Origin: Escherichia phage C1
Reading direction: 5' to 3' (one strand)
DNA length: 46,667 nt
Sequence record: NC_054651.1
Shown here piece after piece: positions 34,799 to 38,749 of this stretch. The position numbers and the translations under genes are program-made. The notes under the pieces are model-generated. The model did not search any database. It was not told the DNA's origin and was given only the letters and a program-made list of their open reading frames with translations. Position 1 is the first letter of the stretch. Each line of letters begins with the position of its first letter.

Positions 34799-35218
34799 TT
34801 ATCCATTCTGCTGCTCCAGTAATTTCTCCAGTCGCTCAAGGCGCGCGGCGAGTTCGGTAACTTCGGCAATATCCAACCCCGTCCTGATAACCTCGGCAAA
34901 TGTTTTGCCAATGTCCACAGGTATAACGCCAGCGGCTATGCCACGAATAACGGCGTCAATCTTCTCTACCGGAGTTCCATCATCAGGGAAATCAACTTCA
35001 AAGACAGGCGCTACCGGTTTCGGCAACGGGCTGAATCGAACGATAAGTTCCTTCATCATTGCGGTGTCACGTTCAATCATCGCCATCTCAACAATGGTGT
35101 CATAGAGCTTTTCCTCGCTAAACCCCTTTCTCTCAAGAGCTTCAACGAGCAACTTACGCTTGTCTTTCCCGCGTTTATTTTGCGGTTGATTTTCTTTGCT
35201 GAATAGCTTTTTAGCCAT
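34799..35218 (-). CDS. terminase small subunit (putative)
   Basis: 139 aa, basic N-terminus, immediately upstream of large subunit. Confidence 0.55.
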   Translation of the reverse strand: MAKKLFSKENQPQNKRGKDKRKLLVEALERKGFSEEKLYDTIVEMAMIERDTAMMKELIVRFSPLPKPVAPVFEVDFPDDGTPVEKIDAVIRGIAAGVIPVDIGKTFAEVIRTGLDIAEVTELAARLERLEKLLEQQNG

Positions 35219-35299
35219 AGATAAAACCTATCAATATTCCGCTATTTTTCCGTTATTCGATATTGTAACAGATTCTACACCATGACGTTAATGGCAAAA

Positions 35300-35325
35300 A
35301 AGAACCCGCACAAGGCGGGTTAAAG
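35300..35325 (-). terminator. rho-independent terminator before terminase operon
   Basis: AACCCGCC-ttgt-GCGGGTT hairpin followed by T6 on minus strand. Confidence 0.6.
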
Positions 35326-35867
35326 GTTGGGTGATGATATGAGTGAAGCAAGGTGGTTATTCGCTTATTGTACACCATCACTATCACGCTTGCCAGTGTA
35401 GCACCATGCGTTTTCATTGCGAGTCTGCACATGAACGATTTCAAGCGCATCAGGGAATGTCTTTGCGACCTTCGCGATAAAATCGTCCAATTCGTGTTGC
35501 TTGGCGAGTTGCCAAACCTTCGCTTTAGTTGTTTGCATTCGCAAAAGCCCTCGTAGAACACATGCACTTGATGTCATGCACGCCACTGTCAGGAACAACC
35601 TCAATGCGATTGCCGAGCTGCACCATCATGTAATGACATGTCATCATGCCGTCCCAGTAGCGCTTCCACATGAACTCCATTGCGGCGTTTATATCGTCAA
35701 ACATAATGCACAACTCCTGCAATAGCTGCTACCAGCGCCAGAGCATAAACAGCAAGGAAGATTTTAGCGCCAGCGGTGTAGCTGCGTCGTTTGTGGTTGT
35801 TCATTGGTATGCCTCCACTAAAGCGTGCGCCACATAGAGCGCACTGATAATTAATATGAACGGGCAG

Positions 35868-36179
35868 CTATTCACTTTTAGCCAGGCTTTCGAATTGCTG
35901 GTTGATTGTGTCAAACTGAACCAGACTGACAACATCGTCGAACATGACAAATTCACCATCGTGGTCTTCGCTCATGTCAGCGCCACACTCCTGACCACAT
36001 GAGTCACAACCCCCCATATCAAGCTCGTATCGCTTCATGTTTGCGATATTTGATAAATTCAGCGCCAGTACAGCAAGGTCATAAACCTCGTCAGCGGTAT
36101 ACCCTGCACCATGACCATACATTTCAATTCGCGATATGATTTCTTCTACTCGTTGTTTTGTGATTGTCATTTTTGCCAT
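35868..36179 (-). CDS. small strongly acidic protein
   Basis: 103 aa, about 20 Asp/Glu vs 7 Lys/Arg. Confidence 0.45.
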   Translation of the reverse strand: MAKMTITKQRVEEIISRIEMYGHGAGYTADEVYDLAVLALNLSNIANMKRYELDMGGCDSCGQECGADMSEDHDGEFVMFDDVVSLVQFDTINQQFESLAKSE

Positions 36180-36541
36180 CCTCCTTTGCGAAGCTCTGCG
36201 GCGAACTCGTTAAGTGATATGTAGCAATCTCCAAATGTTAACGAACCGCTCGACTGCATATGCTCCATAGCCATCTCCACACCCTGCGCCCGTACTTCAG
36301 CCAGGAAATCATCGGTGGCTGGGGTTTCCGTGAGGTTGTCCTCCCAACCGTAGTACTCCTGACGACAGAAGTTATTAAATTCCTTTTCCGACTGTTTAAG
36401 CGCCGCATTCTCCGCTGCCAACTCAGCGCATTTAGCTTCGAGTTCCGCGTAGTCCTCGTAATTAACATAAGCACCATCGCCACACTCATCCATAGACATG
36501 CTACCAAAAGCAGAAATGTCATAACGCTTCACTTCACTCAT
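36167..36541 (-). CDS. small acidic protein
   Basis: 124 aa, Asp/Glu-rich. Confidence 0.45.
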   Translation of the reverse strand: MSEVKRYDISAFGSMSMDECGDGAYVNYEDYAELEAKCAELAAENAALKQSEKEFNNFCRQEYYGWEDNLTETPATDDFLAEVRAQGVEMAMEHMQSSGSLTFGDCYISLNEFAAELRKGGWQK

Positions 36542-36738
36542 ACCCTAACCCCCATAATTTCTTCGTAATAACCATCTTCTTCAAACTCAATTTTTGCGAT
36601 TGTGAGCGCATCATCATCGGTGATATCAATCGCTTTGAATTTGCACCTTGCCAGCACTATGCAGCCTGACATGATTAACCACTTGTTCCACCAGCGCACT
36701 AACTTGATTGTCTTGCATGCATACATTTTGTTCTGCAC
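36538..36738 (-). CDS. hypothetical small protein
   Basis: 66 aa ORF, start/stop overlap with neighbour. Confidence 0.35.
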   Translation of the reverse strand: MQNKMYACKTIKLVRWWNKWLIMSGCIVLARCKFKAIDITDDDALTIAKIEFEEDGYYEEIMGVRV

Positions 36739-36775
36739 AAACCAGAACTCATATGTTTTTGCTTTTGCTATATCA

Positions 36776-37426
36776 TCACCCTATTTCACATATCATATAA
36801 ACTTTCCTCATTAGGCCGTCAAGCAGCATTGGGTGTATAGAATCACATAACCCCTTCATTTGCTTTGCTTGCTTTATCTTTTCATTCTTCCATGCCTGAT
36901 GCGCTTCAATCACCGAACTGAAATAGCCTAAAAATACTGTACGACCATTGCCATCACCTATGTGCGCCTGATAAGCGCAAGAACACTTATTAAATGACAC
37001 ACCTATAGGCAAGTCACCTCTCGAGGCATTCCTTGCTGTCACGAAGTTGTTTAGGTGTGGAGGCACGTAAACACATGCTTCAGGTGAGTAAGTCAAATTA
37101 CCAGGAATCAATATATCCTTATCAAGGTGCCACCCTTCAACGTAATGGTTCTTCCACCACAAATTAAAGTTTGAAAACAGCAGCCACTCATTACAACAAG
37201 TAACATGCTCATAGGTTTTGTGTTGTTTTTTGTATTCATCATCAAAACACCTCCTGAGCATTTGATACCATTGGCTATATCCATAATGTTGCACCTTTTT
37301 ACCATCAACTTTCATCGCCACACCGAAGCCACAATCATTAACTCCAACACCAAATATTGGCTTTCTTTTTCCTTTCTTTATATCTCTGTTAAGCTCCATT
37401 TTTATGGAGAGATTTTTCTTTTGCAT
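36776..37426 (-). CDS. homing endonuclease with C-terminal AP2-like DNA-binding domain (putative)
   Basis: 216 aa; C-terminal block GVSFNKCSCAYQAHIGDGNGRTVFLGYFSSVIEAHQAW fits AP2 pattern; free-standing gene. Confidence 0.5.
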   Translation of the reverse strand: MQKKNLSIKMELNRDIKKGKRKPIFGVGVNDCGFGVAMKVDGKKVQHYGYSQWYQMLRRCFDDEYKKQHKTYEHVTCCNEWLLFSNFNLWWKNHYVEGWHLDKDILIPGNLTYSPEACVYVPPHLNNFVTARNASRGDLPIGVSFNKCSCAYQAHIGDGNGRTVFLGYFSSVIEAHQAWKNEKIKQAKQMKGLCDSIHPMLLDGLMRKVYMICEIG

Positions 37427-37628
37427 TTCTTTTCCTCATGGCCTTTAGCCTGCAATATGGACAGCAGTACTTCTTGTCACTTCTGCATCCTGGCAACAGG
37501 TCTTTCCCGCACATCAAGCACTTCATTATTAACCCTCACAATAAAGATAACACATAGCTGTTATCATATCAAGATGTAATGCAAGACATTATCACAATAA
37601 AACATATCAAAAGTGATAGCTTTCCTGT

Positions 37629-37811
37629 TCAGAACACGATAATCAGCTCATCCATTACTCTGCGCTTACCTTCTCCATTAAACACGCGCACAACGCGATT
37701 TACGCGGATGGATTCCATTGCATTACGTGCCTGCTTGCTCATAAAGTTCTGCGCGCCAACGTGACCGAGTTCTTGTTCCAGCTTCTCGCGACGGTAGATA
37801 GTTTTTGCCAT
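37629..37811 (-). CDS. hypothetical small basic protein
   Basis: 60 aa ORF. Confidence 0.3.
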   Translation of the reverse strand: MAKTIYRREKLEQELGHVGAQNFMSKQARNAMESIRVNRVVRVFNGEGKRRVMDELIIVF

Positions 37812-38323
37812 TTATTGCACCTCGTAAGAGTTAGTGATTGCCTTAATGCGGCGACGATACCATTGCATGATGTGTTCGTTATGCCAGTTGCTCATTTTGT
37901 TACCCCTTATAACCTGATTTAGAAACTGCCACTGAGATAATGATGAATGCCACGATAATCAGACTGGCGATAAGTTCGAATGTTGCTCCTGTCATTTACT
38001 TAACCCATACGCTGAGATTAAAGCCTGCATTGCCGCGTTCCAGAATGCTTCCGCAGGAATGCTATTGTTTGCGCGGTTAACTGCAATGCGTGCCATAGCT
38101 TGTGCATCTTCAAATTCTTCACGGTCTTTGATTTTCATTATGCGTACCTGTTATATGAAAGTTTTTTACATGCGTAATATTGTTTTTCTGCATAAGCAAA
38201 GGTCTTTCCAGTCTTCATCATCGCATCAATGAATTTGTGCGCGTCACCCTTTGACTCGCAATACAGAGCTATTGCGTATTTGGTAGGTTTCATCTCTTCA
38301 CCCTCGTTTGTTCCGATGAGTTC

Positions 38324-38352
38324 AATCTACATCAACGACGATTCTACGTCAA
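38324..38352 (-). promoter_or_regulatory. sigma70-type promoter (TTGACG-17-TAGATT) for leftward operon
   Basis: Read on minus strand; two copies of the GTAGAWT motif. Confidence 0.5.
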
Positions 38353-38680
38353 CAGGAATGCGTTAAAAACGTGCTCGTGGGGTAAATTTTTGCTCGTGGG
38401 GTAGGTCGTGGGGAAGGGGGCATGCCCCACTGGAAACCCTTGTGCCATGCGGCTTTTAACATGTTTGGGGAAGTGGGGCAGATTTCATACCCATCCCCTT
38501 ATAAATATATTCAAATAATCCATTTGTTAATATTATGTTAATTACTACCTATAATATGAATAATAATATTACCCATTAACCCAAATAATAATAATTTTAT
38601 TATATTACATATACTTAGAGGAGAGCTTCGTGGGGAAGGTGATGTTCCCCACGGCTGCCCCACGTTACCCACGTTAGTCG
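38350..38680. repeat. origin-like region: CGTGGGG iterons in both orientations flanking a ~120 bp AT-rich core, plus GGGGCATGCCCC palindrome
   Basis: Three direct CTCGTGGGG copies at about 38354, 38383, 38396; palindrome about 38405; AT-rich 38490..38620; further CGTGGGG/CCCCACG copies at about 38628, 38647, 38658. Confidence 0.55.
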
Positions 38681-38749
38681 TATTTGATGTTGCATGATTC
38701 AATAGTTATGATATGATTCAATCATAATTTGTTACTGGTGGAGGATTTT

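Follow-up and report, generated by a model that had tools for sequence, protein, structure and literature searches.

A Variable Two-Gene Cassette of EaE/Oad2-Type and Cys-Loop Modules in a Virulent Escherichia Siphovirus, with a Possible Role in the Inhibition of Host Immunity

Introduction

Among enterobacterial phages and prophages, few "dark matter" genes are as widespread as the ea / exo-xis accessory genes. This analysis addresses two small, acidic genes, apparently of that kind, on the minus strand of a 46,667-nucleotide (nt) stretch of DNA from Escherichia phage C1 (NC_054651.1), the whole of which is referred to as the window. The pair occupies positions 35868 to 36541, and its members are named orfB, for the product of 124 amino acids (aa), and orfA, for the product of about 100 aa that is annotated as 103 aa. 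An earlier reading of the letters alone, called here the sequence-only reading, had proposed the two products as Ocr/ArdA-like DNA mimics or as other inhibitors of host defence. We describe the pair as a variable cassette built from modules of a known phage family, and tentatively relate it to the inhibition of host immunity.

Thus far, the EaE/gp37 family has one member with a mechanism, as an inhibitor of the OLD nuclease. A virulent siphovirus carrying a full-length member together with a detached head module, which is fused elsewhere, represents a compact two-gene system. Such a system could serve to test how target specificity is written into the variable segments, and whether phages differ naturally in their sensitivity to OLD-type abortive infection because of the cassette.

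The Locus and Its Genes

By megablast, positions 35000-38000 of the window are 100% identical, over the whole query, to Escherichia phage S192 (ON239132.1), a phage labelled "Deseoctovirus" whose source was the intestinal mucosa of piglets and whose isolation host was E. coli 192. With respect to that record, the window is rotated and runs in reverse complement, the record coordinate being 79605 minus the window coordinate. The nearest kin of S192 are the Skatevirus-type small siphoviruses of Salmonella and E. coli, namely BS5, INT55, ZK22, LPST10, swi2, Segz_1 and the BASEL phages Bas77-81. The two acidic minus-strand open reading frames (ORFs) of the sequence-only reading are confirmed by the ORF list and by the annotated coding sequences of the S192 record, 35868..36179 (minus strand, URP83773.1) and 36167..36541 (minus strand, URP83772.1). 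The genes of the locus are the following.

36167..36541, minus strand: orfB, 124 aa, URP83772.1; EaE / HK97 gp37 / Oad2 mosaic family
35868..36170, minus strand: orfA, most likely 100 aa (annotated 103 aa, from 36179), URP83773.1, phrog_3126; two-module, acidic
36538..36738, minus strand: upstream gene of 62-66 aa, phrog_10786; conserved 5' flank of the cassette, translationally coupled to orfB

Of the two sizes given earlier, 124 aa stands and 103 aa most likely does not. Since all 120 of the 120 closest orfA homologues begin MTITKQ, and since the corresponding ATG is preceded at about 9 nt by GGAGG and overlaps the orfB stop as ATGA, the true start of orfA is most likely 36170, three codons past the annotated one, giving a product of 100 aa. 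The start ATG of orfB likewise overlaps the stop of the upstream 66-aa gene as ATGA. With this overlap at both junctions, the three genes are translationally coupled. The dN/dS ratio against homologues is 0.15-0.23, indicating purifying selection, and orfA and orfB are therefore expressed, selected genes. In a large protein database, orfA has 263 relatives and orfB 4836.

orfB and the EaE/Oad2 Family

The product of orfB alternates conserved framework with variable segments, which are distributed over the gene as listed.

36443..36541, minus strand: variable N-terminal head, aa 1-33, MSEVKRYD...DGAYVNYEDY, the "KRY beta-hairpin" module
36377..36442, minus strand: framework 1, the leucine zipper LEAKCAELAAENAALKQSEKEF, aa 34-55
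36329..36376, minus strand: variable middle segment V1, NNFCRQEYYGWEDNLT, aa 56-71
36272..36328, minus strand: framework 2, ETPATDDFLAEVRAQGVEM, aa 72-90, the most conserved segment of the family
36170..36271, minus strand: variable segment V2, AMEHMQSSGSLTFGDCYISLNE, followed by the framework 3 tail, FAAELRKGGWQK, aa 91-124

In an alignment of 35 homologues, an invariant or nearly invariant scaffold consists of LEAKCAxLAAENAxLK (aa 34-49), ETPATDAFLAEVRAQGVEM (aa 72-90) and FAxQLRKGG (aa 113-121), and the segments between, namely the head (aa 1-33), the middle (aa 50-71) and a C-terminal stretch (aa 91-112), are replaced wholesale from one homologue to another. The family core segment, ETPATDAFLAEVRAQ, stands between the leucine zipper and the C-terminal LRKGG. 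All three scaffold elements of orfB could be aligned with Oad2, with HK75_28 and with 34 homologues. Within the same alignment, N45 and A46 of the zipper are invariant and L41 and L48 are conserved in at least 90%, and framework 2 has five invariant residues (T73, D77, L80, E82 and A85). With the heptad register assigned by reading the sequence, aa 34-55 read as a putative four-heptad leucine zipper, with L34, L41, L48 and F55 at position d and C38, N45 and E52 at position a. The head sequence occurs in Skatevirus-like phages, and at the DNA level bases 1 to about 100 of the pair are matched only in swi2.

Profile searches place orfB in the same family. Its PHROG matches, all function-unknown, are phrog_492 (7.8e-29), phrog_614 (2.2e-25) and phrog_368 (9.2e-22), with further matches to phrog_10746, 26126 and 14548. 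The protein Oad2 matches phrog_614 (8.3e-53), phrog_492 (6.2e-18) and phrog_368 (3.9e-14); Oad2 and its HK75 homologue share five of the orfB PHROGs (492, 614, 368, 26126 and 14548), and Oad2 additionally matches 10746. A tblastn search with orfB returned 113 phage records, including "Eae protein", P22 EaE, HK620 hkaH/hkaG and "Ead/Ea22-like" proteins, and a few of the 4836 relatives carry Pfam PF13935. Pairwise, orfB is 64% identical to P22 EaE over aa 30-86 and 53% identical to HkaH. The Pfam scan (E<=0.1) gave two weak coiled-coil matches only, bZIP_1 and CCDC93; a sequence search of PDB with orfB gave chance matches only and no Ea22 match, and an NCBIfam scan of both proteins gave nothing meaningful. 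Judged by alignment and profile, orfB is a full-length, genuine member of the P22 EaE / HK97 gp37 / Oad2 mosaic family.

Oad2 was recovered as gp27 of phage HK446 in a screen for inhibitors of the P2 OLD abortive-infection nuclease (10.64898/2026.07.10.737580, July 2026 preprint). According to the same preprint, Oad2 rescues OLD toxicity in recB cells and abolishes OLD defence; it co-purifies with OLD and stops tRNA cleavage by the OLD tetramer, not by dimeric mutants. P22 EaE is among its relatives, and fusions to an HNH (homing) nuclease or to EaD/Ea22 occur in some cases (10.64898/2026.07.10.737580). A homologue from HK75, 54% identical to Oad2, is without OLD inhibition, and specificity is argued to lie in differences of the Oad2/HK75 type (10.64898/2026.07.10.737580). 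Our own alignment of HK446 gp27 (Oad2, YP_007111980.1) with HK75_28 reproduced the 54% identity.

orfA, a Two-Module Neighbour of orfB

The orfA product represents a different construction, with two modules and a short tail. It has no match to PHROGs 614, 492 or 368 and contains none of the three scaffold segments itself.

36039..36170, minus strand: N-module, aa 1-44; predicted helical hairpin, ITKQRVEEIISRIEMYGHGAGYT.DEVYDLAVLAL, with helices 5-18 and 26-44
35919..36038, minus strand: C-module, aa 45-84; KRY beta-hairpin with an inserted acidic Cys loop, KRYELDMGGCDSCGQECGADMSEDHDGEFVMFDDVVSL
35868..35918, minus strand: tail ...QQFESLAKSE and stop, aa 85-100; conserved 3' boundary of the cassette in Skatevirus-like phages, whatever the upstream content

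The protein matches the function-unknown phrog_3126 (2.5e-59), and its 263 close relatives, 80-94% identical, belong to Skatevirus-type phages and to lambdoid prophages such as Sf101, IME10, Stx2c phages and O157:H7 prophages. An exhaustive HMMER search also found the two modules separately, the N-module alone or fused to other domains. The C-module follows the pattern (K/R)R(Y/F)xLD..CDS(C/F)GQDCGA(D/E)M.ED.DGE(Y/F)V, and is elsewhere fused to Ead_Ea22 (PF13935), to DUF551, to a MazG-like dATP/dGTP pyrophosphohydrolase (PF04447) and to ASCH/DUF3850. From these sequences, the C-module appears to behave as a generic or promiscuous adaptor or interaction module. Examples of the fusions are P0283, P0334 and P0270; no Pfam model matched the module in the proteins scanned. 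One apparent relative, P0251 (2733 aa, E 6e-32 to orfA), was set aside as a false positive: it is a surface protein of the subtilase type, rich in repeats (about 21), and it scored through repeated "LNLNSSGTANLS..DLGSTDNCG" stretches, a compositional or repeat artefact.

The AlphaFold model of orfA has two helices and then a small sheet of three strands, the first and second of which are linked by the acidic Cys loop, followed by a short helix; in the C-module the predicted strands are 47-51, 65-68 and 74-75 and the helix is 77-83. A run with 21 close homologues was unusable, with a predicted local distance difference test score (pLDDT) of 44. Among the cysteines, only C55 and C62 are conserved, C58 being Phe in 15 of 55 distant relatives. 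Because of this, a classical monomeric zinc site is unlikely, and the reading of orfA as a monomeric zinc finger was rejected.

Several lines of evidence link orfA to orfB. Directly 3' of an EaE-type gene, orfA is found in Vi II-E1, VSt472, Segz_1, KFSST1 and Bas80. Single polypeptides also exist in which orfA aa 1-95 are followed by ETPATDAFLAEV and then by an EaE-type C-terminal domain (Sf101 gp22, P0243, P0244, P0246 and P0247). Additionally, orfB aa 3-37 and orfA aa 44-86 align in hhalign (probability 66%, E 5.5e-5); relative to the orfB head, the hairpin module of orfA has an eight-residue, Cys-containing insertion. By profile and fusion evidence, orfA is made of two modules that other phages fuse onto an orfB-type scaffold, the second being a Cys-loop version of the orfB head.

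A Mosaic Cassette with Fixed Boundaries

At the DNA level the 674-bp pair is a patchwork: its parts match different phages at 90-98% identity, and the breakpoints fall near bases 100-122, 214, 270, 358-372 and 626-640. The middle segment of orfB has its kin in HK75, P1-like elements, Stx phages and an Actinobacillus phage (90-98%), V2 in ECP1 and in E. coli prophages (95-97% in the latter), and orfA in Skatevirus-type phages and lambdoid prophages. Pieces of the pair are present in 709 of 5426 complete E. coli genomes, none of which covers more than 80% of it, and swi2 (89% coverage) is the only phage with the same overall arrangement. The last part of orfA, bases 626-674 of the pair, is 93-100% identical in phages that are without orfA.

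In INT55, ZK22 and Bas77-79 the slot is filled by one gene of 92-108 aa. This single gene starts like orfB (MSEVK/MSEAK...) in INT55, ZK22, Bas77 and Bas78, and carries the orfA tail motif in all five, as FESLAKSE or, in ZK22, as FESLS with a longer tail. It follows that orfA and orfB behave as one variable cassette with fixed boundaries. The cassette appears to be drawn from the mosaic "ea-region" accessory pool of lambdoid phages, here residing in a virulent siphovirus. In temperate phages these modules are set in the early accessory region, after abc2/DUF2737 and before xis/int (P22, HK620, Sf101, HK75 and HK446). The S192 slot is variable among relatives and, unlike that of HK446, HK75 and P22, is not beside recombination genes.

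Two further observations concern the distribution of these modules. A 134-174 bp part of orfB (zipper and middle, 36270..36440) is 90-98% identical to an Actinobacillus pleuropneumoniae phage, to P1-like elements and to Stx1a/Stx2a phages, with records including H132 (PP818812.1, 11052-11185) and H129 (MH445380.1); recent exchange of the orfB middle module across very different phage types and host genera is what the sequences point to. In some prophages, those of E. coli APEC O1 and O157:H7 being the cases seen, orfA-like and Ead/Ea22-like genes occupy a nin-type region downstream of replication genes (DnaT-like, P), not the PL-side ea region. In the APEC O1 prophage they immediately precede the small terminase gene, an arrangement resembling that of S192.

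Acidity and the DNA-Mimic Proposal

The acidity of the pair is real. The earlier count of about 20 acidic and 7 basic residues in the 103-aa product is exact by composition, with an isoelectric point (pI) of 4.23; the 124-aa product has 25 acidic and 10 basic residues and the same pI of 4.23. In net negative charge per residue the two rank 2nd and 3rd among the 78 annotated proteins of S192 (-0.126 for the 103-aa product, -0.121 for the 124-aa product), preceded solely by a 47-aa peptide, and in pI they rank 4th/5th, against a genome median of 6.2. They are thus the most acidic sizeable proteins of the phage and lie in a small accessory-gene cluster, which speaks for the proposal that their surfaces imitate the DNA backbone, as in Ocr or ArdA, and block type I restriction-modification (R-M), BREX or similar systems. 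A weak match of orfB to phrog_3592, "Lar-like restriction alleviation protein" (E 6e-5), speaks in the same direction.

The remaining evidence makes such mimicry very unlikely. No Pfam model of Ocr, ArdA or Lar matched either protein at E<=0.1, BLASTP of the pair against T7 Ocr gave nothing better than E 3.8, and the PHROG search returned no anti-restriction annotation except the Lar-like one. That match covers the head and coiled coil and is far below the EaE-type matches; moreover, orfB has four scattered Cys and no CxxC pair, lacking the CxxC...CxxC zinc ribbon that is present in the genuine Lar of KFSST1, and the label was dropped as a functional clue. Net charge per residue is -0.239 in T7 Ocr, 29% of whose residues are acidic; it is -0.140 in orfA and -0.121 in orfB, each 20% acidic, which is about half the charge density. 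Strong acidity is not conserved in the orfB family either, whose median is -0.062 (Oad2, -0.051). Mild acidity runs through the whole ea-type pool, a point also made by the authors of the Ea22 work for their C-terminal domains, and we infer that negative charge is a general trait of this pool and not a DNA-like surface. Structure prediction, one of the checks proposed with the mimic idea, produced a moderate model of orfA with no structural neighbour in PDB or BFVD, and a PDB search with the orfA family profile gave nothing meaningful.

Plating data on a relative of S192 bear, indirectly for S192 itself, on the other proposed check, an effect on defence systems. Bas80 contains an orfA homologue 86% identical in protein as well as a full-length EaE-type gene, and in the published BASEL data its efficiency of plating (EOP) is 2e-4 to 1.3e-3 on the type I system EcoCFT_I and 1e-5 to 1e-6 on the type II/III systems EcoRI, EcoRV, EcoCFT_II and EcoPI. 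Bas81 is similarly restricted, with an EOP of 6e-4 to 2e-3 on EcoKI, and the BASEL study calls its Skatevirus isolates "markedly sensitive to RM systems". Though indirect, this is an outcome of the type that the sequence-only reading had named as its refutation. Here, acidity by itself was not enough to identify a DNA mimic, and for the original claim the practical result is negative.

Possible Functions of the Pair

Our preferred account, held tentatively, is that the pair are specificity-variable protein inhibitors of host immunity, because orfB and Oad2, a protein that inhibits P2 OLD directly, are members of one mosaic family. In such a mechanism orfB would dimerise through its leucine zipper, and its variable segments would bind and block a host immune protein stoichiometrically, the template being Oad2, whose binding to the P2 OLD ABC-ATPase/TOPRIM nuclease keeps that enzyme from being activated. 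Through coupled translation, orfA would join orfB as a detached extra head or would bind a second target. The broader suggestion of the sequence-only reading, that of other host-defence inhibitors, gains real, if indirect, support for orfB from the Oad2 family, and its remark that function is purely inferential still applies.

Several points weigh against inhibition of immunity. The identity between orfB and Oad2 is 36% over 122 columns (E 1e-10) and is confined to the scaffold, and the closest characterised relative of orfB, HK75_28 (63% over 101 aa, E 9e-33), is the one that does not inhibit OLD. By this comparison orfB is not an Oad2 orthologue, and the variable segments, the presumed specificity determinants, differ. 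The other studied protein of the wider pool, lambda Ea22, is reported to be pro-lysogenic with no known partner. The AlphaFold model of orfA, built with 40 diverse sequences, has moderate confidence only (mean pLDDT 68, and 72-84 in the C-module). The BASEL authors found Skatevirus phages sensitive to Old overall, and a correlation among these phages, which at first appears favourable, proves to be fully confounded. In the published data, the EOP on Old is about 0.1-0.5 for Bas77, 0.02-0.4 for Bas78 and 0.001-0.07 for Bas79, against about 1-2 for Bas80 and 0.3-1.4 for Bas81. Bas77-79 have only a truncated cassette gene of 92-93 aa, without the ETPATD scaffold or the C-terminal part, and Bas80 and Bas81 have full-length EaE-type proteins, so that plaque loss on Old tracks the truncated gene, a weak correlation consistent with a role like that of Oad2. 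However, a tRNA-Met(CAU) gene is present in Bas80 as well, and the BASEL table gives one tRNA for Bas81 and none for Bas77-79; fMet(CAU) is one of the tRNAs that OLD depletes, and infection can be rescued by tRNAs of phage origin. Since five related phages are compared and two features vary together among them, nothing can be decided from the correlation, and it was downgraded as support once the tRNA-Met confound was found. The S192 genome itself has no tRNA gene.

A more specific version of inhibition, which we regard as speculative and rather improbable, takes the cassette from "MSEVK..." to "...QQFESLAKSE" as a plug-and-play anti-immunity locus in which orfA and orfB form a two-subunit inhibitor. 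The scaffold helices would double as recombination joints, and virulent and temperate enterobacterial phages would swap target-recognition modules much as they swap tail fibres. The variable heads would set which OLD-family, or other ABC-ATPase/TOPRIM, immune nucleases a phage overcomes. If this were true, differences in Old sensitivity among Skatevirus phages would be due to the cassette and not to tRNA genes.

Functions outside immunity have to be weighed alongside. The proteins could instead modulate host physiology or phage development, like Ea22 of lambda and Stx phages and other exo-xis proteins, acting early in infection as coiled-coil oligomers bound to a host factor for regulation, replication or the cell cycle; we consider this unlikely. 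The architecture does match the description of Ea22, in which a short variable N-terminus precedes a coiled coil and an acidic, variable C-terminal domain; in temperate phages the genomic setting is shared with Ea22, and the varied fusions of the orfA Cys-loop module suggest a general adaptor. S192, however, is a virulent-type siphovirus with no lysis-lysogeny decision and no integrase or repressor seen in its annotation; neither protein matches PF13935, nor does orfB match the solved Ea22 C-terminal domain, and in the closer EaE/gp37 family the one member whose biochemistry is defined inhibits immunity. An alternative that would separate the two genes, likewise unlikely in our view, makes orfA a small metal-binding (Cys-loop) protein with a target of its own, its adjacency to orfB reflecting the cassette structure of a recombination hotspot. 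For this independence speak the conserved CxxCG...CG motif and one source that labels a homologue "putative zinc ribbon domain", the occurrence of both modules with many unrelated partners, and the O157:H7 prophages, which place orfA-like genes after a DUF4752 gene and not an EaE-type gene. Two conserved Cys are too few ligands for a monomeric zinc site, and a functional link is favoured by translational coupling and by the recurrence of fusions with the EaE scaffold.

Finally, the ORFs might be functionless recombination debris, kept only since their framework sequences serve as recombination joints. The extreme mosaicism, with no other genome holding the same combination, and the reduction of the cassette to a single 92-93 aa gene in some relatives are what such debris would resemble; the purifying selection, the intact start/stop overlaps, the hundreds to thousands of intact homologues and the demonstrated function of one family member make it most improbable.

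Operon and Flanking Regions

The sequence-only reading had also placed the pair in a leftward operon with other small genes, a fair description, since every gene from about 38293 down to about 35365 is on the minus strand. This small-gene cluster is bounded by a divergent intergenic region on the replication side (about 38293-38738) with promoter-like sites and by a strong terminator-like hairpin, which just precedes a 139-aa gene and the large terminase gene. The label "leftward operon" is plausible for the cluster.

35303..35321, minus strand: terminator-like hairpin, AACCCGC-CTTGT-GCGGGTT followed by a T run, closing the small-gene cluster

The 139-aa gene (34799..35218, minus strand, the function-unknown phrog_9747) lies directly upstream of the large terminase gene, the expected place of the small terminase subunit. 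At the other end, the divergent intergenic region holds, at 38375..38664, iteron-like repeats of the form TCGTGGGG(A/T)A(G/A)G, with four direct copies at 38375, 38394, 38406 and 38628 and inverted copies (CCCCACG) near 38642-38664. The copies flank a very AT-rich stretch at about 38520-38610, and the repeats are compatible with the "origin-like region" of the sequence-only reading, or with operator sites.

An insertion at 36776..37526 (minus strand), made up of an HNH endonuclease gene (216 aa, phrog_953, without a Pfam match) and a 45-aa Cys-rich ORF, separates the 66-aa gene from the 60-aa gene (37629..37811); it is missing in Bas77-81. The 66-aa gene of S192 is without the ATG of its relatives (MEKVKTYEFWF...) and reads ..DDIAKAKTYEFWF, with its first GTG/ATG start 12-16 codons in.

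Downstream of the cassette, the TAG stop of orfA is in frame with a 21-codon spacer, LPVHINYQCALCGARFSGGIP, and a 35-aa membrane ORF, MNNHKRRSYTAGAKIFLAVYALALVAAIAGVVHYV (35697..35870, minus strand), and a single stop read-through would yield a membrane-anchored protein of 157 aa. The stop is TAT in Bas81, and the fusion of orfA with the membrane ORF is real in three database proteins (P0021, P0030 and P0066). The frame is kept in INT55, ZK22, Bas77 and Bas78; it is broken in KFSST1 and Bas80, and read-through was considered and kept as a passing observation only. Since the spacer also holds the GGAGG of the gene that follows and an inverted repeat (GTGCGC..GCGCAC), its conservation may be at the RNA level.

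Comparison with Known Systems

T7 Ocr and ArdA resemble the pair in being small, acidic and probably early-expressed, and differ from it in the absence of sequence or profile similarity and, for the orfA model, of a similar fold, the charge density of Ocr being about twice that of the pair. Lar (PF14354) is close in location, as Lar-like genes sit in the same small-gene regions of related phages, and orfB is without a Pfam Lar match.

The Ea22 protein of lambda and EaD of P22 share with the pair the gene pool and the neighbourhood, as well as an order of parts in which a coiled coil stands between a variable N-terminus and an acidic, variable C-terminal domain. Ea22 is oligomeric, and its domain PF13935 is the one to which the orfA Cys-loop module is fused elsewhere. 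In the Pfam scan (E<=0.1) neither orfA nor orfB matched PF13935, and the solved Ea22 C-terminal domain has no sequence match in orfB. The pro-lysogenic role reported for Ea22 would have no meaning in a virulent phage such as S192.

The closest sequence relatives of orfB are P22 EaE, HK97 gp37, HK620 HkaH and HK75 gp28, and its Skatevirus relatives are annotated "Eae protein". It differs from the four in its Skatevirus-type MSEVKRYD head and in its C-terminal variable segment. Oad2, the member with a mechanism, has the same PHROGs and the same scaffold, composed of the LEAKC..LAAENA zipper, ETPATDAFLAEVRAQ and a C-terminal LRKGG-Q, and is likewise a small acidic accessory protein, in its case an early one encoded in a hypervariable region. 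All three variable segments differ, with many gaps, and Oad2 is an only mildly acidic protein of 175 aa with a pI of 4.8 and -0.05 net charge per residue. The Oad2 gene lies beside the recombination genes of a temperate phage, whereas orfB lies upstream of the terminase in a virulent one. The first mechanism in the orfB family was published only weeks before our literature cut-off, and against this background the pair is a new combination of known modules in a family already known, not a new kind of system.

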